Origin: a virus
Taxonomy: Duplodnaviria > Heunggongvirae > Uroviricota > Caudoviricetes
Strand: one strand, 5' to 3'
IMG/VR virus record: IMGVR_UViG_2706794662_000007
DNA: 64,000 nt
The position numbers were made by a program, and so were the translations under genes. Below are positions 3,871-57,740 of the stretch, one piece after another (the stretch's first letter is position 1; every line of letters begins with the position of its first letter). The notes below the pieces were generated by a model. The model saw nothing but the letters and a program-made list of their open reading frames with translations, had not been told where the DNA came from and did no database searches.

Positions 3871-4568
3871 TACATACGCTCCTTGTAGTAGTCGACCAGC
3901 CACACCAGAGCCTCACCAGCGTTCTCCATTTCATTACCGGTGTTAATAGCCTGCTCTTTGATGATGTTTTTTATGGTTTCTGCAACACGATCTGACGCAT
4001 CGAAAGTTACTTTGAAGCGCATGGTCTGATGTTCCGCCCCCACACGTTCGGTTTTCTCTCGTTTGTCGGTATCGACAGGCTCATCACTACCACGAGACAA
4101 CGCCTCCAGTGCTTCAAGGTCGATTGCCGCCTCTTTTGCTAAAACCATCGAGATTTCGTCGTCATACGGGGCGATTTCAGACAGTTGATAGTCAAGTTCT
4201 GACTGAATTTCTTCAATGAAGCGTTGCAATGCGATTTGGTCGTCTTCACCGTATCGCTCGTTGTCCACCAGTGACATCTGTTTAGCTACGACATCGCTAA
4301 TTTTGCCCACAGAAAGCACTGGAACCGTTGAAATTCCTTGCTCAATAGCGGCACGCCAGCGATGTTCGCCGCCGAGGATTTCAAAAAATCCATCTTCAAG
4401 TTCACGAGCCAAAATTGGCTTAAAAAAGCCCAATTTTTCGATAGAACCTTTCAGTTTTTCGAAATTCTGCGCACCAACCGAATTGGTGTTCCAGGTATTC
4501 GGGCGAAGGTTGGCAACATCAACCTGCAAAATCGTGATTTTTACGTCCATTTTATTGCTACAATCCAC
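3870..4568 (-). CDS. ParB N-terminal domain protein (paralog of neighbour)
   Basis: ParB-NTD motif ILGGEHRWRAA; first gene of leftward operon; motif B upstream at 4567-4589. Confidence 0.65.
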   Translation of the reverse strand: MDCSNKMDVKITILQVDVANLRPNTWNTNSVGAQNFEKLKGSIEKLGFFKPILARELEDGFFEILGGEHRWRAAIEQGISTVPVLSVGKISDVVAKQMSLVDNERYGEDDQIALQRFIEEIQSELDYQLSEIAPYDDEISMVLAKEAAIDLEALEALSRGSDEPVDTDKREKTERVGAEHQTMRFKVTFDASDRVAETIKNIIKEQAINTGNEMENAGEALVWLVDYYKERM

Positions 4569-4632
4569 TAAGTAATCACTTACTTATTATAATAGCCAAA
4601 TAACATACAAAAGGCACTAAGGAAAGAGGTTT

Positions 4633-6192
4633 ATGACTGTTCGGATTGTATCTAACGCAGTAAATGCGCTTATTTCTGGCGCAGATGACAAGGTAAAGCA
4701 ACTGGTGCAGCAAATGTTGAGCTACGAAGTCGAGGCTGGCGACTGGAAGGGCACAAGCACAATGTTCAACTGGAGCAAAAACTCGTTCCCTGCTGGCTTT
4801 GCCAAGCCCGTGGCGGCTAATTTGAACAAGGCGGGCATCAAATGTGTTCATATCCGCAAAGACAAAGCCCCGGCGCTTGGTAAACCAAATCCGGCGGTTA
4901 ACCCATTCCCATACAATCCTGATTATGCGTATCAGGATCAGACTGTGGAAACACTGGTTCGAGAGGGAATGATGATTGCGCAGATCGCTACTGGTGGCGG
5001 GAAATCTAACGTTGCCTGCAAAGCAGCTGCACGTATCGGTCGAATGACATTATTTTTAACAACCCGCTCTGTTCTGATGTTTCAAATGGCCGAAAACTTC
5101 CAGAGATCCATCGACTACCGCGCCAAAAATGGCGAACCGTGGTTAAAAGACCAAAAGGTTGGAGTCATTGGCTCGGGTGAGTTCCAGGTATCACGACATA
5201 TCAACGTCGCTACAGTTCAAACTCTTGCAAGTTTCCTCGAAGAACCACCACGCGATGCAACACCAGATAAGAAAAGCTACCACCTCAAACGTCGGGAGTT
5301 GGTGAAACGCTTCCTTTCAAGTGTCTCTCTTCTTATTCTGGAAGAGGCGCATGAGTCTTCAGGCTCAAATTTCTATGACATCGCCAGATTATGTGTGAAC
5401 GCAGACTATCGTCTGGCGCTTACAGCCACGCCGTTCATGAAGGATTCGACGGAAGCCAACATGCGCCTGATGGCGGTGGCCGGGCGAATTGAAATTAAAG
5501 TCACAGAAAAGTATCTGATTGATCGAGGCATTCTGGCAAAGCCGTACTTCCTTTATCATAAAGTTGCCTACAAGCCAGACGAGGCCAGAATCAAGGCCGA
5601 ACTTGCCAACAAACACCTCAATTTTAGAGTTGGTATGAGCACCGCCTACCAAAAGGCTTATCAGTTGGGGATCGTGTATAATTTGGGACGTAACGAGGCC
5701 ATTGTGCGCGAAGCATTGCTCTATAAGCAACATTCTCTCAATTGTATGACTCTGGTTCGCCTTAAACGCCACGGGCAAATCCTGATGGAAATGATGAAAG
5801 AGTCCGGCCTTAGAGTTGACTTCATCTATGGGGAATCTAACCAGGCGACAAGGCAAGCAAAGCTGAACAGTTTAGCGTCTGGAGAAATAGATGTTTTAAT
5901 AGGCTCGACTATTCTGGATGTCGGTGTTGATGTGCCAAGCGTTGGTGCGGTCATTCTTGCTGGTGGTGGGAAAGCAGAAGTTGAAATGAGGCAGCGTGTC
6001 GGTCGTGGCTTACGAGCCAAGAAGAATCAGGCAAACGTGTGTTTTATCACTGATTTCATTGACATTAGCAACAAATACCTGTTGTCTCACTCTTATGAGC
6101 GAAAACACATCATCGACACCACACCTGGCTTTGCAGAAGGTGTATTGCCTATTGATGGCGCATTCGATTTTGGAGTTCTGAAACGAGATTAG
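4633..6192 (+). CDS. SF2 (DEAD/DEAH-type) helicase
   Basis: Walker A ATGGGKS, Walker B LILEEAHE, motif III TATP, motif VI QRVGRGLR. Confidence 0.8.
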   Translation: MTVRIVSNAVNALISGADDKVKQLVQQMLSYEVEAGDWKGTSTMFNWSKNSFPAGFAKPVAANLNKAGIKCVHIRKDKAPALGKPNPAVNPFPYNPDYAYQDQTVETLVREGMMIAQIATGGGKSNVACKAAARIGRMTLFLTTRSVLMFQMAENFQRSIDYRAKNGEPWLKDQKVGVIGSGEFQVSRHINVATVQTLASFLEEPPRDATPDKKSYHLKRRELVKRFLSSVSLLILEEAHESSGSNFYDIARLCVNADYRLALTATPFMKDSTEANMRLMAVAGRIEIKVTEKYLIDRGILAKPYFLYHKVAYKPDEARIKAELANKHLNFRVGMSTAYQKAYQLGIVYNLGRNEAIVREALLYKQHSLNCMTLVRLKRHGQILMEMMKESGLRVDFIYGESNQATRQAKLNSLASGEIDVLIGSTILDVGVDVPSVGAVILAGGGKAEVEMRQRVGRGLRAKKNQANVCFITDFIDISNKYLLSHSYERKHIIDTTPGFAEGVLPIDGAFDFGVLKRD

Positions 6193-6194
6193 TT

Positions 6195-6473
6195 ATGAGC
6201 GAAAAGAAAACAACTTATTGTCAGGTGGCATTGTCCGATAAGGCCAATGACAAACTTGGAAAGTTTCAAATGAAACTAAAAGAAAAAAACATCAAAATGT
6301 CTAAGGCTGAAGTTATCAATACCATTCTGGAGACGATGACGATGGCTGAATTTGACAAAGTTTCATCTGCCGTTGGAGTCTCTGCTAAGGCTCGTGAGAA
6401 AATCATGCGCATCTATGAGAACTCTAATATGACAAAGGAAGATTTAGAGCAAATTCTAAGCAAACTGCCGTAA
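6195..6473 (+). CDS. hypothetical protein
   Basis: 92 aa ORF 3 nt after helicase stop; followed by hairpin terminator. Confidence 0.45.
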   Translation: MSEKKTTYCQVALSDKANDKLGKFQMKLKEKNIKMSKAEVINTILETMTMAEFDKVSSAVGVSAKAREKIMRIYENSNMTKEDLEQILSKLP

Positions 6474-6528
6474 TATTGGATTCTTAGTCAATTTCAGAAT
6501 TGCCAGACTTGAAGAGCTAATAGACAGA

Positions 6529-6561
6529 GTGCGGCAACAACGCCTTTGCCGCACAGCTTTT
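6529..6561 (+). terminator. rho-independent terminator-like hairpin
   Basis: gtgcggcaa...ttgccgcac stem followed by agctttt. Confidence 0.5.
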
Positions 6562-6654
6562 AGAGAAAACACGTCTGCTATTTACAGTTGAAAACTTATC
6601 GTTTGAGACTATTGGATATTTATAATTCTACTTTGCAATAATCGCTGTATAAAA

Positions 6655-7248
6655 ATGAAACGTTCGTTACTTCTTGCTTGTATATACCTCTCGTCATTTT
6701 CCGCCAATGCGTTGTCAGATATCGTCTCCGACATGCAAAAAACGTACAGCATGTATACTTCTGAAGACGTACTAAAATACGAATCACGAGGTCTGATTCA
6801 ACCAGTCTGGTTCAGATTCTCAGATAACGCAGAAGAAACAATACTTAATGCAGGAAAAGAAAGATTACGGTTGCAAATTAACGGAACCGCTGTACCAGAA
6901 AACGTTAATGTAAGCTCTGACGAAGCCATGAAGCCATCTGGAATTGTTTTGGAAGTTCAAGACGGCACACTTTACTGTGATGAAATGGCTACAACAGGTT
7001 GCCAAGTAAACATTAGGGTTGGCAATGAAGAGCCTATCGTTACTTACGCCAAGGCTGAAGGGAATACAAGTGGAAAGGTATTGTTTATCGATGAAAATAC
7101 CTCAAAACGTATCGTTCGTGACATACAGAAAACAGCGAACTCTAAATCCGTCGATAAAAAAATCTATGTTGAGGTTCCCTTCTTTGTCGTTGGTAACAAA
7201 GAATTTAAATTTGGGTTGCTGAAAACACCTCTAAGAGTATCAGAATGA
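6655..7248 (+). CDS. secreted protein with cleavable signal peptide (hypothetical)
   Basis: N-terminus MKRSLLLACIYLSSFSANA; in AT-rich island; stop overlaps next start (ATGA). Confidence 0.5.
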   Translation: MKRSLLLACIYLSSFSANALSDIVSDMQKTYSMYTSEDVLKYESRGLIQPVWFRFSDNAEETILNAGKERLRLQINGTAVPENVNVSSDEAMKPSGIVLEVQDGTLYCDEMATTGCQVNIRVGNEEPIVTYAKAEGNTSGKVLFIDENTSKRIVRDIQKTANSKSVDKKIYVEVPFFVVGNKEFKFGLLKTPLRVSE

Positions 7249-11575: not shown

Positions 11576-11632
11576 AGTGTCTTGGTTATTTTTCTATTTT
11601 ATAGACATAGGTATGTACTTACAATACAAAAA

Positions 11633-25126: not shown

Positions 25127-25187
25127 ATGTTTTTCTCTTATCGTTTAGTTATTACATTCTTACACAAATTAAGTAAGTATTTACCTA

Positions 25188-26892
25188 TCATTTAACGCGT
25201 TTGAAAACGTATACGCTGACTGTGATCCCTGTGTCTTCAAACTCGTTGGTAAACGACTTCCCTCTGGCATAAACGTAATTATCCATCGTCATCCAGTCCA
25301 GTATTGGCGCNNNNNNNNNNNNNNNNNNNNNNNNNNNNNNNNNNNNNNNNNNNNNNNNNNNNNNNNNNNNNNNNNNNNNNNNNNNNNNNNNNNNNNNNNN
25401 NNNNNNNNNNNNNNNNNNNNNNNNNNNNNNNNNNNNNNNNNNNNNNNNNNNNNNNNNNNNNNNNNNNNNNNNNNNNNNNNNNNNNNNNNNNNNNNNNNNN
25501 NNNNNNNNNNNNNNNNNNNNNNNNNNNNNNNNNNNNNNNNNNNNNNNNNNNNNNNNNNNNNNNNNCCAGATCGGCGTTAATATAGGCCAGAAGATCCCCA
25601 CGTCCGGCTTGAGGCTCCAACAGCTTCTCACCAGGCTTCAATTCAGTGGCTCTGGCAACGTACTCAGCAATCAAGCGTGGGGTAGGGTAGAACTGGTGTG
25701 ATTTTGTATCCGGTATTAAACCGGTAGCCACAATCGTATTTAGCGTATGGCCGATCTCATACGGGAACTGCCAGTGCTTTTTCTCCTGCACGCCGCCAAT
25801 GAAGCTCAGTGTGCGCTCAAGCTCTTCCACCTGCGACTTCTGGAGAGCTGAATCAGAGAAGTACCATACGCCTTTGTCTTTGCTCAATCGCCCGTCACGA
25901 AGCGCAGTGCGAACCGGCACGGAGATCGTCTTCTGGATTAACCCGAACTGCTTTGGTGCCCGTGTTTTTGGCGCAGTTCGGCATGGCGCGGGGATTGCAG
26001 CAGGCATACTGTAAGCCAGCACCTCATTCAACTTCCAGGCCACGTCAGGATGTATTTCAAAGTGAACGTTGCCGTTCTTGAACATCTTCACGCGCATCAG
26101 ATTTCCATCGACGTTCATCCAGTCACCGGTCTGGCAGTCGTTTGCCCGATACGCAGCTGATAGCACCTCAGCAGTGCGGTTGATGGTAATAAATTCTTTG
26201 TGCGCGAAGAAATGAAGCAAGACACGCAGATCGTCGATGTAGTCCTCTTTGCGATAGTTCACGCTAACGCTGTCACGCCAGAAATCAGAAATGCAGTCAG
26301 CGATTATCAGACGCTCGCTGAAACCGTTTGTCTTATTTGTCTTGTGCGCAGGACTCAGCGCCTTAAACAAGCCATACACGCGCTCAGAGAGATATTTGTG
26401 CCTGTCATTCAGCAAATTAAGCATCGTTGGTATGACCGTTTCTGCTTTGAACTCCGGTACACCAACGAACTCTTTAACCTTCATCTGATAGCCGGTTCTG
26501 TCAGTTTTGATGACTTCCTGCTTGCCCTCGATAAATAGCTCACGCCACTCGTCGCGACGGGAAGCTGGCATGATCAGCAGAACGTTAGTCATATCCGTAA
26601 CCTTCCTCCAGTACTCGGCCCAAATATTCTGTTTCACCCATTCCAGATCGACGTTATCCAGCCAGACTCGATTCAAACGTGAGCGATCTTCATCTGGTCG
26701 GTGGTTTAGTCGAAGCAGGCGATTAATCATGTTGTGGCGTTCATCGCCATAAACGAAGTCGTGTACCTGATACATGAAGGAGATCTCTTTCTCGCACTCG
26801 GCCACAATTTCGTGGATGACGTTCATTTCCTGTCGATAGTCGATAGCAGTGTTTGAGCTGGCATCGCCCATGATGGAAAGGGCTGTATTCAT
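25188..26892 (-). CDS. putative N6-adenine DNA methyltransferase with large N-terminal extension (C-terminal part masked)
   Basis: FYPTPRLIAEYV followed by EPQAGRGDLLAYI (motif X then motif I, gamma-class order) just before the N-run; the catalytic (D/N)PPY region would lie in the masked part. Confidence 0.45.
25311..25565. other. N-run
   Basis: 255 n. Confidence 1.
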
Positions 26893-30769: not shown

Positions 30770-31350
30770 ATAAACTCCTGAATCAAGCGCCGCGCCGATT
30801 TTTCCTCGCGCGTGCGCACACGCGTGCGTGTTAATAATTATTAAAATAAACAAATTACTTCCCAGAACAGGTTTTTATAAACCTGAACTGAACGAACGAA
30901 GTGAGTGAAGTTCACCTCGAACGAAGTGAGAGGTTGTCTTTTCAGGTAATACTCTCCCAGGGAGGTGAGTATAAAATTCCTCACCAACCTGGTCGTTTCA
31001 TAACCTGAAAAGCTATGGTCTAAGTCTACTGCCAGCTTAGACTTGGGAAGTTATGGATGACAGCACCCCAGAACCGAGATCTTCCCACACTTTATGAAGG
31101 GGAGTACTGGATTCAACCTCTCGAAACACCCCAGACTCGACAATCATAAAGTGACCCTTGTCTCCGCTCACTTTGGTTCCCCCTTCCCCGACACCTAAAC
31201 GGCACCGGTTCTACGCTGGTAGTGAGCTTTTTTAAACCTGACGCCAGTGACGCTTACCCCCACCCATCAGGTCGAGTCTCCAGTCTACGACTGGAAACTA
31301 TCAGATCTTAGCACTTACAATTCATCTTATGAATAGTTTGTACTTATCTA

Positions 31351-31581: not shown

Positions 31582-31689
31582 GTTGGTTTCCTTAAAGTGG
31601 TTCATAAAATCGATTTTAAAGCGTCTGGGAAGGGGGTCTAGTGGATTCTGTAGTGATGTTCAGGTCTGGAGTCTCTGATACAAAACAGC

Positions 31690-31746
31690 CTGCTTCCGTA
31701 TATTAATAATTAATATGTAGTTATTTATATATATACAGAAGCAGGC
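31690..31746. repeat. long nested inverted repeat element, copy 2
   Basis: cctgcttccgtatat...atatatacagaagcagg, same architecture as copy 1. Confidence 0.7.
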
Positions 31747-31768
31747 TAATTACAGACGCCAGAACAAA

Positions 31769-41894: not shown

Positions 41895-41916
41895 GGCCAC
41901 TAAATATAGTGGCCCA
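41895..41916 (-). terminator. terminator hairpin
   Basis: gggccactatatttagtggccc followed by T-rich run on minus strand. Confidence 0.5.
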
Positions 41917-41949
41917 TGTTAATAGATAAGCACTTACCTATCAATGAAA

Positions 41950-50498: not shown

Positions 50499-50924
50499 TC
50501 AATCTTCTTGGTTAGGGAAAAACTGTTCAATAACTCTGTCAACGGCTGTGTCTATATGGAGTAGATGCCACACAACCATATCTTTGCTTCCCATGCCTTG
50601 TGTGAATATCACGTCATACTTACGCCATGCGCAGTGGAACCAATATGCTGAGTCATCAATTGGTAAATCCTCTCCCGCCTCTTTGAAGTATTTCAGCAGC
50701 ATTGCCTGCTCTGCCGTTGGCGTTGGACCTATTTCCTGAGCGTACATACGGATGAATCGCTGCCAGTCTGTCTCGTCGGGGGTTGGATCTGGTGGGGTCA
50801 TTTCTGCGATAGCGTTTCGTAGCTGATGCGCCCAATCAGGTTCAGGAAAGCCTTTTGCTACTTCATCATCAATAACATCCAGAGCCACGTTTGCGGCATC
50901 GTAGAGTTTCTTAATTGCTGCCAT
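50499..50924 (-). CDS. hypothetical protein
   Basis: 141 aa ORF. Confidence 0.45.
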   Translation of the reverse strand: MAAIKKLYDAANVALDVIDDEVAKGFPEPDWAHQLRNAIAEMTPPDPTPDETDWQRFIRMYAQEIGPTPTAEQAMLLKYFKEAGEDLPIDDSAYWFHCAWRKYDVIFTQGMGSKDMVVWHLLHIDTAVDRVIEQFFPNQED

Positions 50925-51395: not shown

Positions 51396-52136
51396 TTATG
51401 GCAGTAATTCTTTACCGCTTTCCATTTTGGTGATAGAGACAGTAGGATCATCGTTAATGCATGATTCTGTGCCTAATGCTGCTAACCCTTTACGCATAAC
51501 CGTGCCCGCAACATACGCCTCAATCTCCGCCTTTCCAGATGAGACAATTTCATCCATTTGTTCCTGCATTAATTCGGTAGCAAAGCACAGATTTTCAGGA
51601 AGGTTAGCTACAGCAGATGCTAGTTTTCTATATAGTTCTTCAAGGTCACGTTTTCCAGCTCTTCCTTTTTTCACAAGTTCACCTAGCTCTGAAACTTGCT
51701 GATTAAGTCGATCAATCTCACTATTCGTAGCGGCCTTTATTTGATCGTTGAATTTTTGCCGAATACTTTTTTGCTCGGCAATATCATGAACTCTAATTGA
51801 GTCTCCAATGGTTTTATATGAAATAGTGCATGGCACACCTTCGCCCACTCCAAAACTGCTAACCATAGCAGCCCATTGTGCCTGGCTAAGTCTAATTTCA
51901 ACTAAAGGCCGTCTATTGCAACTTCTTTGTGGGCGGGTTCGTTCATTGTCTAAGGACAGTTCCGCCTCGTAAACGCCTATTTCAATATAGTCTCTATGTT
52001 CCAGTTCTGAATCAAATAGGCGAATGCCAGTTGTGCTAACACGGCTTGTTTTCACAAGACCGAACGCTGGATGTGTTTGAATTTTTTCCCCATGTTTATT
52101 AAGGGTCGTTTTTGGTTCTTCAATTTTTCTTTTCAT
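51396..52136 (-). CDS. hypothetical protein
   Basis: 246 aa ORF. Confidence 0.5.
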   Translation of the reverse strand: MKRKIEEPKTTLNKHGEKIQTHPAFGLVKTSRVSTTGIRLFDSELEHRDYIEIGVYEAELSLDNERTRPQRSCNRRPLVEIRLSQAQWAAMVSSFGVGEGVPCTISYKTIGDSIRVHDIAEQKSIRQKFNDQIKAATNSEIDRLNQQVSELGELVKKGRAGKRDLEELYRKLASAVANLPENLCFATELMQEQMDEIVSSGKAEIEAYVAGTVMRKGLAALGTESCINDDPTVSITKMESGKELLP

Positions 52137-52183
52137 CTTATTAACCTCTATGCTTCATGCGTAAAGCTAAATGACAATTTTTT

Positions 52184-53008
52184 TTAATATCCGGCGTATT
52201 CGTATTCTTCATTTAGACCGTATTCTTGTGGAGTGATACCAGGACAACATAACTCAAAGGCGAACTTGCGCCATTTGATTTTTTCTTCTGACGATTGTTT
52301 GTTATTCGCCGGTGCAATGTAGTCATATTCCCATTTGCCGTTGCGAAGTAAAATGAATCCGCAGTTATTGCCGAAGTCTTCGTCTGCATAACGTATTACA
52401 AACTCAAGGTGCGGGAACTTTCTAGCCATCGCTTGATAAATTGGTTTTGGCATAGACCAGGCTGTTTCAAAGCGAATCACCAACTCACCACCAGTTGCGG
52501 CATGTCTTGCAAGACGTTTTTTATAGATTCGTTTTGCATATGCTCGAACGTGTGTATGGCGGAAATTATGGCCGTACTTAATACGTGTAGGGATACGTTT
52601 TACGGGCATTTCGATGTTGTAGGCATTCCATTTTGTTCCCCAATTAGCTCGCGACCAGTCAAACCATGAGTAATAGCCATAGCGACGATAATTCTCAAGC
52701 CGCATAAGAGCCTGCTCTTTGATTTTGCGAATTTCCTTGCGTGTCATTCCTGATTCACGCATAGCTAATTCGACCTGTTCTGGAGTCTTTAATTCACCGA
52801 ACATGTGGTCGTAAACTGTTTCGCCCGCCATTGCAGAGGCCATGCGCCTGATATGATTGTTTTCTTCCATTTCTATACTTTTCGGACGTCTGCAAATGGT
52901 ATTAAAGTCAATTAGACCTTTTTTGTTAGTTATGGCACGTATGAAATCTAAGCGTTGTTTATTTGTACCACCTATGACTCGGATTTCGTTTGTAATGTGG
53001 TTGGGCAT
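52184..53008 (-). CDS. hypothetical conserved phage/plasmid protein
   Basis: 274 aa; YGYYSWFDWSRANWGTKWNA motif; motif A at 53013-53031 upstream. Confidence 0.5.
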   Translation of the reverse strand: MPNHITNEIRVIGGTNKQRLDFIRAITNKKGLIDFNTICRRPKSIEMEENNHIRRMASAMAGETVYDHMFGELKTPEQVELAMRESGMTRKEIRKIKEQALMRLENYRRYGYYSWFDWSRANWGTKWNAYNIEMPVKRIPTRIKYGHNFRHTHVRAYAKRIYKKRLARHAATGGELVIRFETAWSMPKPIYQAMARKFPHLEFVIRYADEDFGNNCGFILLRNGKWEYDYIAPANNKQSSEEKIKWRKFAFELCCPGITPQEYGLNEEYEYAGY

Positions 53009-53067
53009 AATTAACTTAACCTTTTAACAAATTGTTTTCTTGTGTGTGATAATAACGAGAATAAAAC

Positions 53068-53086
53068 GGCGTCCAACTGGACGCCT
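53068..53086 (-). terminator. terminator hairpin
   Basis: ggcgtccagttggacgcc followed by T-run on minus strand. Confidence 0.55.
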
Positions 53087-53103
53087 GATCTTCTTAATGA
53101 GAG

Positions 53104-53934
53104 TTATTTCACTGTAATGAAAGGAGTGTTAGCCCCTTGAGTCATGTACTGCGGTAACTGGCCATTCCATTTATTGATGGCTTCCAGTTCCATAACGTTC
53201 GGGTTTTGACGCAGAGCTTCACCGCGCAGACGAATGGCGTCTGCTTCTGCTTGCGCACGAGCACGGATAGCATCAGCTTCACCATTAGCCTGTTCACGTA
53301 GCATATTCGCCTCAGCTTTACGTTGTTCAACTTCCTGCTGACGTTGCAGAGTACGCTGGTTAGCCGTTACTTTGGCGTTGATAGATTCAATGACGGTTTT
53401 TGGGTAATCAGGCTTTCCAACCCATGACAGGCTCAGTACCTCAATACCAACCGGAGACATCTCTTTCTGAATATCTTTCAGTGCGTTGTCCAGCAATTGC
53501 GCCTTACCACCGTCGATAAATGAGTCAGTGGTCATACGGCTGGCCAAACGGTTTAGAGAGTCGGCAATTTTCTGACGCAGATCTGATTCGGTGATATCGT
53601 CTACGCCTTTGCGATAGGTCTGGAACACCGTCGTTACCTTGTCACGATTAACCAGATACGCAACGCCAATTTTGTGACCAATAGCAGTACCGTCACTCAT
53701 CTGGAATGTGAACGGTTCGTCGTAGGTCTTCATTTGTTTGAAGGTCGGGAATACGTAAAGTTCGGTGTTAAGACCTGTCCATTGGCGACCAACGCCAACC
53801 ACTTCACCGATCCCTTTGTCTTCACCTAATTTGTTTACTTTGATGCCAACGTATCCAGGCTCCACGCGATCACAGCCAGTAAGACCCATTGTGCAAATAG
53901 CCGCCAGAGCAACTGCAAGTAAACCTTTCTTCAT
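53104..53934 (-). CDS. SPFH/band-7 domain lipoprotein
   Basis: Lipobox-like MGLTGC at N-terminus; SPFH-type body with coiled-coil A/E/R-rich C-terminal region. Confidence 0.7.
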   Translation of the reverse strand: MKKGLLAVALAAICTMGLTGCDRVEPGYVGIKVNKLGEDKGIGEVVGVGRQWTGLNTELYVFPTFKQMKTYDEPFTFQMSDGTAIGHKIGVAYLVNRDKVTTVFQTYRKGVDDITESDLRQKIADSLNRLASRMTTDSFIDGGKAQLLDNALKDIQKEMSPVGIEVLSLSWVGKPDYPKTVIESINAKVTANQRTLQRQQEVEQRKAEANMLREQANGEADAIRARAQAEADAIRLRGEALRQNPNVMELEAINKWNGQLPQYMTQGANTPFITVK

Positions 53935-53937
53935 TAC

Positions 53938-54138
53938 TTATTTCCCCTTTGCTTTGATTAATGAGTTGATAAACTTACGACCAGCAATAAGACCGATTAC
54001 AGGAGCACCAAAACCAACGATAACTCCAAACATGACGGCTAAATCACTCTTGGTAGAAATCAGCGACGGAACCAGTAAACCGTAGATGAGAGCCACTGAA
54101 ACGCCTGTGGCTACTGCCAATAGATAGATTTTGATCAT
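53938..54138 (-). CDS. small two-helix membrane protein upstream of SPFH gene
   Basis: 66 aa, IYLLAVATGVSVALIYGLLV and VMFGVIVGFGAPVIGLIAG; 3 nt from SPFH start. Confidence 0.45.
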   Translation of the reverse strand: MIKIYLLAVATGVSVALIYGLLVPSLISTKSDLAVMFGVIVGFGAPVIGLIAGRKFINSLIKAKGK

Positions 54139-54205
54139 GTGTTTTCCTATGTGGTTGTTATGCGAAAATAATAAGTAAGTACTTATATATTTTCAAGAGA
54201 TAAAA

Positions 54206-54226
54206 AAGGCGTCCTGTGGACGCCTT
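54206..54226 (-). terminator. terminator hairpin
   Basis: aaggcgtccacaggacgcctt followed by T6 on minus strand. Confidence 0.6.
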
Positions 54227-54230
54227 GTGT

Positions 54231-55321
54231 TTACTCTTCTACTGACTCGGTGGGGTTGTCTTTTGCTCTTCGGTCGTCGATTGCCTGCAAAGCCGCAATG
54301 ATTTCAGCCAGTGGCTTCTCCCGATACATCTCGACGATCTGCGATTTGGTGTATTTCTTGTCACCAATTTCAACTCGCCCGCTGGCGTTCTTTGGCAGGT
54401 ATCCTTCTTCCAGCATGTACTCGACGAGCGATTCGATAACGTCGAGGCCACGAGTAGGATCGAAGTAGAATTTCCAGGTGCATTTGCCATACGGTGGTGC
54501 AACTTTGTTTTTGATGCATTCTGCGCCTACGTCCTGGCCGATCTTCTCTTTACCATCCTTCATCACCGATGCACCAAGACGGATACGTACAGAAGCGTAG
54601 AACTTCGGTGAATCTCCACCTGGAGACGTAGTAGGGTCGCCAAACATTACACCGATTTTTGTGCGAACCTGATTCAAGAAGATGATGCAGGCGTTGTATT
54701 TGCGTGCCCACAAAGCCAGAGTAGGGAAGTTCGCACTTGTCGCACGAGCCAGTGCCGTATTGTCGTTCATGTTTAGCTGATCTTTGTCTTTGGCAGTGCC
54801 TTCAGCCATCTTTTCGAACTTCTCGGCTTTGGAGTTCGGAACCATAGACGCAAGTGAGTCAGCCACGATACAGATAGGTGCTGATTCAGGAATAAGCTCT
54901 TCATCACGTACCAATTTAAGAATTGTGCCGATCAACTCTACAGAGTCTTCGAAGGTATCAGGCTGCTTGTATACCCACTGACCGTCATCCTCATCTGCAT
55001 TCAAACCATTGGCTACAGCCAGGCCAACGTCAAAACTGTTCTCATGATCGAGGANNNNNNNNNNNNNNNNNNNNNNNNNNNNNNNNNNNNNNNNNNNNNN
55101 NNNNNNNNNNNNNNNNNNNNNNNNNNNNNNNNNNNNNNNNNNNNNNNNNNNNNNNNNNNNNNNNNNNNNNNNNNNNNNNNNNNNNNNNNNNNNNNNNNNN
55201 NNNNNNNNNNNNNNNNNNNNNNNNNNNNNNNNNNNNNNNNNNNNNNNNNNNNNNNNNNNNNNNNNNNNNNNNNNNNNNNNNNNNNNNNNNNNNNNNNNNN
55301 NNNNNNNNNNNNTTTTGCCAT
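54231..55321 (-). CDS. RecA-family recombinase (UvsX/RecA-like), interrupted by N-run 55055-55312
   Basis: C-terminal part ...IIFLNQVRTKIGVMFGDPTTSPGGDSPKFYASVRIRLG matches the RecA core (loop L2 region); N-terminal ATG at 55321; Walker motifs presumably masked. Confidence 0.8.
55055..55312. other. N-run
   Basis: 258 n. Confidence 1.
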
Positions 55322-57623: not shown

Positions 57624-57740
57624 GTGTTTCTCCTTGTTGTGATTTGGCCGATGGCGCTATGCGCGTTGGGCTTTCGTTCATTCGTGGCTCTTTCGAGCTG
57701 TTAAATGATAGATCAGTACTTACTTATTATCTATCAAAAA

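Follow-up and report, generated by a model that had tools for sequence, protein, structure and literature searches.

A conserved gene pair for a two-helix membrane protein and a predicted SPFH lipoprotein in an SSU5-like phage-plasmid, possibly a periplasm-facing membrane scaffold

The window analysed in this study is a stretch of 64,000 nucleotides from a virus of the Caudoviricetes (IMG/VR record IMGVR_UViG_2706794662_000007), and it is an SSU5-like phage-plasmid of Escherichia coli. On its minus strand there are two adjoining genes, the first encoding a small protein of 66 aa with two hydrophobic stretches and a basic C-terminus, the second a 276 aa protein of the SPFH (band-7) superfamily which carries a lipobox. 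The two are separated by only 3 nt (TAA-GTA-ATG), and their features are collected in Table 1. The original prediction had described the locus as exactly this arrangement, and it was correct. Among SSU5-like haplotypes the ratio of nonsynonymous to synonymous substitution rates (dN/dS) is 0.11-0.24 in the small gene and 0.02-0.07 in the SPFH gene; with values this low in both open reading frames (ORFs), both are real genes under purifying selection. The ribosome-binding site of the SPFH gene, as read from the sequence, is located inside the end of the small gene, thus the pair appears to be translationally coupled; in relatives the genes are spaced by 3 nt or another small gap, or they overlap by 4 nt.

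The larger protein was recognized by Pfam Band_7 (PF01145) at E 2.6e-30 (106.2 bits against a cut-off of 23.6, residues 23-209), and it belongs to phrog_200 'lipoprotein' (E 3e-108). The earlier assignment to the SPFH family was thereby confirmed. Its N-terminus, MKKGLLAVALAAICTMGLTGC-DR, is composed of a basic n-region (MKK), a hydrophobic core and the lipobox L18-T19-G20-C21, hence the predicted precursor has both the signal peptide and the [LVI][ASTVI][GAS]C box of bacterial lipoproteins, and Cys21 is retained in 14 of 15 aligned diverse homologues. In the AlphaFold2 model (predicted local distance difference test, pLDDT, 76.6) strands span residues 20-95, helices and one strand residues 97-176, and a 65-residue helix residues 179-243. 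This corresponds to a beta-rich SPFH1 and an alpha/beta SPFH2 domain (together about aa 20-176) followed by the long helix, that is, to the core and coiled-coil helix of the cage-forming members of the superfamily, as the Foldseek comparison also indicated. The alignment behind the model is shallow, since the homologue search with a diverse SPFH alignment returned mostly enterobacterial proteins again. A C-terminal motif, KWNGxLP...PFxxVK, is conserved, with W256, G258 and P261 invariant; these residues stand in the low-confidence C-terminus of the model (253-276) and would fit an inter-subunit element.

The structural comparison gave a consistent picture. The best Foldseek match of the model was HflK (7vhq_E, E 7.9e-13), followed by erlin1/2, prohibitin and HflC, then by stomatin (3e-10), flotillin (1e-8) and QmcA of the QmcA-YbbJ pair (5.7e-7). 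The alignments to HflK/C, erlin, prohibitin and stomatin extended over 234-287 columns, nearly the full chain, at E 1e-12 to 1e-10. At the sequence level HflK was the sole match in the PDB (7vhq_E, E 0.007), the identity to HflK/C was 17-19%, and the scores against the NCBIfam models of HflC (TIGR01932, 30.2 bits, cut-off 134.4) and HflK (TIGR01933, 18.7 bits, cut-off 159.4) did not reach the equivalog level. The protein is a separate subfamily of the SPFH superfamily, nearest in shape and orientation to the cage formers on the non-cytoplasmic side. In phage records its homologues are labelled 'serine protease', 'SPFH serine protease', 'transposase' or 'transposase fusion protein'. We rejected these labels, only the Band_7 domain being detectable, and they look like propagated mis-annotations.

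The small protein was placed in phrog_1130 'membrane protein' (E 9e-26) and modelled by AlphaFold2 as two helices, residues 2-28 and 32-65 (pLDDT 71.6). It proved to be too short and too divergent for single-sequence searches to find its distant relatives: tblastn against the phage collection returned SSU5-like relatives only (6 records), a word-indexed protein search returned close E. coli relatives only and no Pfam domain, and an exhaustive phmmer search of 1.84 billion representatives gave 7 matches. Distant partners were therefore recovered by their position, and by a profile made from the ORFs neighbouring SPFH genes. The partner ORFs of the fetched phage loci have in common a turn motif after helix 1, P-x-[LM]-[IV]-S-x-x-[DS]; in an alignment of 24 diverse partners Pro24 is the sole invariant residue and Ser28 is about 90% conserved. 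The partner is predicted to be a hairpin with both ends in the cytoplasm and a short conserved turn in the periplasm. The side of the turn is indicated by the basic ends of the partners and by the basic linker between helix 2 and the signal peptide in natural fusions (see below).

The original prediction had likened the arrangement to SPFH/NfeD-type pairs. This holds for the gene order and the membrane location, it does not hold for the partner itself, which lacks both an OB-fold (oligonucleotide/oligosaccharide-binding fold) and a match to NfeD, and we rejected its identification as NfeD. None of the 24 diverse partners matched PF01957 (NfeD) at E<=1, the search of the PDB with the partner profile returned no NfeD or YbbJ chain at E<=10, and the 66 aa are all taken up by the two modelled helices, leaving no space for an OB-fold domain.

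It was clearly demonstrated that the pair extends far beyond the close relatives of the window, contrary to the absence from relatives that the original prediction had named as its refutation. Homologues of the SPFH protein were found by tblastn in 413 of 50,697 phage records (about 0.8%) of very diverse lineages, including lambdoid phiP27 and Stx phages and P2-like (P88), P1-like, N4-like, rV5-like, LUZ24-like, T7-like, Felix-O1-like and phiCbK-like phages, and the gene occurs in approximately 5% of complete E. coli genomes (the pair in 283 of 5,426). Fourteen phage loci were fetched across this range; in nine of them an ORF for a two-helix protein of 49-78 aa stands directly 5' of the SPFH gene, in 4MG, phiM6, Pseudomonas TL and Erwinia FIfi106 it stands 150-450 nt further up, and in phiCbK no partner ORF could be recognized. 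With 80 viral and 80 genomic loci added (174 loci in all) the SPFH proteins formed 33 clusters at 70% identity. A partner ORF was present within 700 nt upstream in 23 of these, and directly adjacent in 19.

A profile was constructed from 23 partners and applied to the 21,673 six-frame ORFs of the 174 related loci at E<=1e-3. Of its 160 matches, 154 preceded the SPFH gene in the same orientation. The remaining six stood on its 5' side too, but their ORF either overlapped an SPFH start that had been set wrongly or continued in frame into the SPFH ORF. Since the profile was drawn from the searched loci, its sensitivity is circular, and the real control is that no matches appeared elsewhere in the loci. 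Three independent in-frame fusions of partner and SPFH protein were identified, in an Iamiaceae metagenome-assembled genome (L153), in a gammaproteobacterial one (L170) and in a P1-like enterobacterial protein with 8 member sequences (P0049). In the fusions helix 2 is joined to the signal peptide via a basic linker, which reproduces the canonical order of an N-terminal membrane segment followed by the SPFH domain. The pairing of the small gene with the SPFH gene holds in different phyla and is not due to chance.

Chromosomal copies were found as well. In about 25 species of Dyella/Rhodanobacteraceae the pair occupies one syntenic site (L111-L138 and L147, approximately 4500-6900 in each locus), with a divergent BlaI-type repressor and a BlaR1-type M56 membrane metalloprotease on one side and two large genes without assigned function on the other; a regulatory or functional link of the SPFH family to a membrane protease sensor is possible there. 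The copy in Leptospira adjoins succinate dehydrogenase genes, the one in Xenorhabdus stands between a major facilitator superfamily transporter and flagellar export genes, and the one on a Sutterella contig has prophage-like surroundings. This occurrence on chromosomes suggests a role in general physiology, not one in phages only. As a separate observation, the band-7 lipoprotein gene of phiCbK (L012, 2495-4887) is two genes away from an RtcB-like gene, and the SPFH gene PaFlo8 of Pseudomonas aeruginosa is embedded in an rtc RNA-repair locus (PMC13086221); the proximity to rtc-type genes may be a coincidence or a recurring association.

In the window the pair is bordered on both sides by a terminator hairpin with the same stem. 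The whole 64 kb contains only two copies of the motif GGCGTCC N3-4 GGACGCC (0 expected), one on each border (53068-53085 and 54208-54224). SSU5, Cyrano and the majority of the fetched SSU5-like loci also have it on both sides of the pair; among the fetched loci four have the exact motif downstream only and one has no copy. The twin hairpins look like a duplicated terminator marking an inserted module, or like a recombination boundary. The downstream stem is followed by GTTTTATT. Between the upstream hairpin and the small gene a sigma-70-type promoter was predicted, with a near-palindrome, ATAAGTACTTAC, in its spacer. SSU5-like lineages that have reached saturation at synonymous sites (dS above 1.3) still share the hexamers and nearly the entire spacer.

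Elements related to the spacer palindrome are also found upstream of the nrdA-like gene, the single-stranded DNA-binding protein (SSB) gene and a 234-aa gene, and their position before several early genes suggests a shared regulator. The recurring promoter/operator-like element is built around the palindrome GTAAGTACTTAC, often with flanking GATAG...CTATC; it was located at 25166-25194, 41916-41944, 54168-54196 and 57702-57733, upstream of the 234-aa gene, the nrdA-like gene, the SPFH pair and the SSB gene, and in weaker form at 11611-11622 and 31336-31347. With at most 2 mismatches, 15 matches were counted in the window against 3.8 expected, and the element is possibly the binding site of a phage regulator. 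A site for a host stress regulator of the CpxR, PhoP or RcsB type in the promoter was considered by eye and rejected, the spacer palindrome recurring at other early promoters of the phage. An Rfam scan over 52000-55000 gave no match.

The expression of the pair could be followed in published RNA-seq data on the close relative Cyrano, whose SPFH protein is identical to that of the window. In overnight culture in LB the Cyrano pair (CYRAN_56/57) is at background level (log2 2.3-4.3, S1 Table of PMC9928086), and after 6 h inside macrophages it reaches log2 7.3-7.7, while the adjoining recA and exonuclease genes stay at 2.4-4.2 (PMC9928086). The pair is thus a unit transcribed on its own, though conditionally. 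It has its own promoter and terminator (consensus scan) and is transcribed independently of its neighbours, as is typical of phage morons; the authors of that study did not include it in their list of Cyrano morons (PMC9928086). Taken together, the pair is an autonomous promoter-to-terminator unit, and in this window it is an accessory cassette with no core phage function.

Table 1. Features of the SPFH cassette and its borders in the 64,000 nt window
Feature	Position	Strand	Basis and remarks
Upstream terminator hairpin, left cassette border	54206..54226	-	Terminator scan; stem GGCGTCC/GGACGCC and T-run; ends the RecA-like gene
Sigma-70-type promoter (predicted)	54168..54196	-	Promoter scan; TTGAAA-17 nt-TATTAT, 10/12 matches
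Ribosome-binding site AGGAAA of the small gene	54143..54148	-	Read from sequence; 4 nt 5' of ATG; kept in relatives
Two-helix inner-membrane protein (predicted), 66 aa	53938..54138	-	ORF list; motif P24-S-L-I-S28 at the end of helix 1
Ribosome-binding site AAGGGG of the SPFH gene	53944..53949	-	Read from sequence; within the last codons of the small gene
SPFH/Band-7 lipoprotein, 276 aa	53104..53934	-	ORF list; PF01145, phrog_200, AlphaFold2, Foldseek
Lipoprotein signal peptide aa 1-20 and Cys21	53872..53934 (Cys codon 53872-53874)	-	Lipobox LTGC, Asp at +2
Downstream terminator hairpin, right cassette border	53068..53085	-	Terminator scan; stem identical to the upstream one

Based on these results we tentatively favour the view that the pair is a module for assembling an SPFH ring that sits on the inner membrane and faces the periplasm; the hairpin would provide the transmembrane part of this ring in trans, and the module would have a role in membrane stress or quality control. 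The architectural part of this proposal, taken alone, is in our judgement likely. In E. coli an Asp at position +2 keeps a lipoprotein in the inner membrane; this residue, together with Cys21 standing directly before the first strand with no tether, suggests that the lipidated SPFH protein would stay on the outer leaflet of the inner membrane. The periplasmic orientation is in line with that of the best fold matches (HflK, erlin, prohibitin and HflC), none of which faces the cytoplasm. There the protein may oligomerise into a ring or dome like that of HflK/C, prohibitin or erlin, and translational coupling would provide the small protein in roughly equal amounts. Canonical SPFH proteins have a transmembrane part of their own at the N-terminus; the small protein could take the place of this part in trans (a 'split anchor'), and its P-x-L-I-S turn would touch the membrane-proximal SPFH1 domain. 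This is suggested by the gene order, colinear with the canonical order of anchor and SPFH domain, by the coupling and the natural fusions, and by the conservation within the partner, which falls precisely on the periplasmic turn. The membrane patch fenced in this way might buffer inner-membrane stress or control the quality and turnover of membrane proteins, which would benefit the lysogen under envelope stress and the phage during infection. The functional part is drawn from the chromosomal copies in housekeeping or sensor-protease contexts, the induction of the Cyrano pair, and the precedent of HflK/C, FloA-NfeD and prohibitin.

Several observations weigh against this interpretation. Oligomerisation, contact with the partner and the membrane of residence are all points that we infer. 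No partner could be detected in 10 of the 33 SPFH clusters. The +2 residue is Ser, Glu or Asn in many homologues, and in the window the Arg at +3 may weaken the retention signal of the Asp. A recombination breakpoint was detected within the cassette: in Cyrano (L175), L047 and L032 the SPFH gene is almost identical to that of the window (dS 0.03-0.11), whereas the small gene is strongly diverged (dS 0.63, dN 0.15). Partner alleles therefore recombine independently of the SPFH allele, and tight co-evolution is not seen. Furthermore, several other Cyrano genes are likewise elevated in macrophages, so the induction is not unique to the pair (PMC9928086), an HflK/C-like SPFH protein from a Pasteurella multocida prophage, a possible relative of the phage family, was reported in outer-membrane vesicles (PMC9872710), and the role of the family in phages is called unclear in PMC8540360 and PMC13239085.

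Four other explanations were weighed against the scaffold interpretation. The pair might be a protease modulator, where the periplasmic SPFH ring surrounds or holds back a membrane protease of the host (FtsH, HtpX or another), altering the turnover of membrane proteins or of regulators such as lysis-lysogeny factors. The closest folds, HflK/C, prohibitin and erlin, are scaffolds for membrane-protein degradation, HflC and HflK are the NCBIfam models with the highest, if weak, similarity, and the Dyella pair is syntenic with a membrane metalloprotease. Nevertheless the HflC and HflK scores are far under the family cut-offs, the low identity to HflK/C makes co-assembly unlikely, the conserved partner of its own suggests a self-contained system, and the family is common in strictly virulent phages, which have no lysogeny decision (PMC8540360). 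We consider this explanation unlikely, though not negligible.

Superinfection exclusion or another form of membrane defence, in which an altered periplasmic face of the inner membrane bars foreign phage DNA or shields against abortive-infection effectors, appears rather improbable. Known exclusion factors are often small inner-membrane proteins or lipoproteins (T4 Imm and Sp, P22 SieA, T5 Llp, Cor), which the pair resembles in kind, and it is a moron-like cassette in a temperate element, mobile across phage lineages. On the other hand a comparison with 5,027 PADLOC defence models (E<=0.1) gave no match for either protein, a prophage exclusion gene would not usually be at background level in the lysogen, as the Cyrano pair is in LB, and there are vertically inherited chromosomal copies in housekeeping contexts. 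The literature searched gave no functional study tying SPFH proteins to exclusion, anti-phage activity or lysis, and the CRISPRi-ART supplements gave no result for the pair. A broader form of the idea may be mentioned as a speculation with a similarly small chance of being right, namely that a 'split' SPFH system fencing patches of the host inner membrane from the periplasm is a widespread, previously unrecognised membrane-protection device of phages. It could keep out the DNA of competing phages, or hold the membrane in an energised state when abortive-infection effectors act or holins fire too early, and the 66-aa hairpin would be a transmembrane fence or a gated pore inside the cage.

Still less probable is that the pair is host-benefit or virulence cargo, the lipoprotein serving the lysogen in animal hosts, for example in tolerance of stress inside macrophages or as a lipoprotein active on Toll-like receptor (TLR) 2. 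The roughly 10- to 40-fold rise of the Cyrano pair at 6 h in macrophages, with the lytic neighbours silent (PMC9928086), is in favour of this, as is the presence of the pair on SSU5-like elements of E. coli, Shigella, Salmonella and one Yersinia pestis contig. The Pasteurella multocida prophage lipoprotein mentioned above as a possible relative adds to virulence and signals via TLR1/2 (PMC9872710). The family is, however, widespread in virulent phages and in phages of environmental bacteria such as Caulobacter, Desulfovibrio and Phaeobacter, for which virulence of the host plays no part. Lysis timing, where the small protein would be a class II holin-like pore former restrained by the SPFH lipoprotein, is the least supported role and very improbable: the size, two-helix shape and basic C-terminus are typical of class II holins, but the pair adjoins endolysin, holin or spanin genes in none of 16 annotated phage loci, no significant match to holin families was obtained among the 24 partners (one member at E 0.055), the holin-endolysin-spanin cassette of Cyrano is a separate one about 30 kb away, and the pair also occurs in non-phage chromosomal loci.

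The surroundings of the cassette are those of a mobile element. The region matches Escherichia phage CMS-2020a at 100% identity and Salmonella phage SSU5 at 79%, and the genes near the pair include a RecA/UvsX-like recombinase, a 5'-3' exonuclease and a gp32-like SSB. The E. coli copies comprise 195 full-length ones on plasmids of about 110 kb and approximately 100 partial, 75%-identical matches on chromosomes; in PLSDB 179 plasmids have the pair, 176 of them non-mobilizable. Similarity to the closest relatives stops at about 53015, just past the downstream hairpin, which marks a mosaic junction or a variable slot. The gene 3' of the cassette (52184-53008, minus strand) encodes 274 aa with a DUF1281_C 'Api92-like' ferredoxin-like domain (phrog_12644), and it is present only in the identical record CP054387, SSU5 and Cyrano having other genes at that slot.

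A few further observations concern the rest of the window. Masked runs of N are located at approximately 55013-55321, in the N-terminal half of the RecA/UvsX-like gene, and at approximately 25300-25590, in a gene for 537 aa; owing to the former the RecA/UvsX-like ORF appears truncated (54231-55004). The length of RecA differs between Cyrano (779 aa) and SSU5 (358 aa), which hints at an insertion or intein in some relatives. Two long hairpins about 30 kb apart, at 1067-1125 and 31688-31747, have the arms CCTGCTTC(T/C)GTATATA ... TATATACAGAAGCAGG and an AT-rich loop, and they may be strong terminators or regulatory or plasmid-maintenance sites. In a protein of the Logan assemblies (P0046, 303 aa) residues 1-227 of the SPFH protein are joined to the C-terminus of the window's DUF7238 protein (50499-50924), implying a deletion of about 2.6 kb in one assembly that took the end of the cassette and the intervening genes.

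SPFH proteins are universal membrane organisers, and their roles in bacteria are still debated. Phage genome papers repeatedly mention an SPFH 'lipoprotein' without explanation; while such lipoproteins were already annotated, the SPFH operon with a lipid anchor and a non-NfeD mini partner is new here, and the literature searched contained neither the conserved hairpin partner nor the fusions nor the chromosomal counterparts in bacteria. A hairpin of 60-75 aa together with a predicted lipid-anchored, periplasm-facing SPFH protein, found from enterobacterial phage-plasmids to Leptospira chromosomes, offers a minimal and tractable two-protein system. If the split anchor is true, this system could show how SPFH rings define membrane microdomains and how phages gain from them.

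Compared with known systems, the phage protein is similar to HflK/HflC in complex with FtsH (PDB 7VHQ, 7WI3, 9CZ2) in having SPFH1/2 domains and a long coiled-coil helix, with most of the chain on the periplasmic face of the inner membrane. HflK and HflC, however, have an N-terminal transmembrane helix, form a hetero-pair and enclose FtsH, whereas the phage protein is predicted to be anchored by lipid through its lipobox signal peptide, with no retained N-terminal helix, and it is encoded by a lone SPFH gene next to that of a 66-aa partner. The SPFH-NfeD operons (QmcA-YbbJ of E. coli, PDB 8Z5G; PH1511-PH1510; FloA-NfeD of S. aureus) likewise combine an SPFH gene with that of a membrane-embedded partner, and an NfeD-type partner is thought to help or join the SPFH oligomer (PMC13086221). 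The difference is that QmcA-YbbJ faces the cytoplasm and the phage pair the periplasm, and that an OB-fold domain is missing from the phage partner. The prohibitin and erlin complexes (PDB 8RRH, 9O9Z, 9VVG, 9O9U) have in common with the phage protein the fold over nearly the full length, the non-cytoplasmic side and, as predicted for the phage protein, a ring or cage fencing a membrane patch; they are, in contrast, hetero-oligomers of eukaryotes that are anchored by N-terminal membrane segments, carry no lipid modification and lack a small hairpin partner.

Two further comparisons are of a looser kind. PM0222 of Pasteurella multocida is also a prophage-borne HflK/C-like SPFH protein, possibly a relative of the phage family, and its study dealt with innate immune signalling, not with a bacterial or phage function (PMC9872710). 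T4 Imm and Sp and T5 Llp are, like the pair, small phage-made proteins of the inner membrane or lipid-anchored ones facing the periplasm, but they have no SPFH domain and no relation to the pair in sequence or fold.

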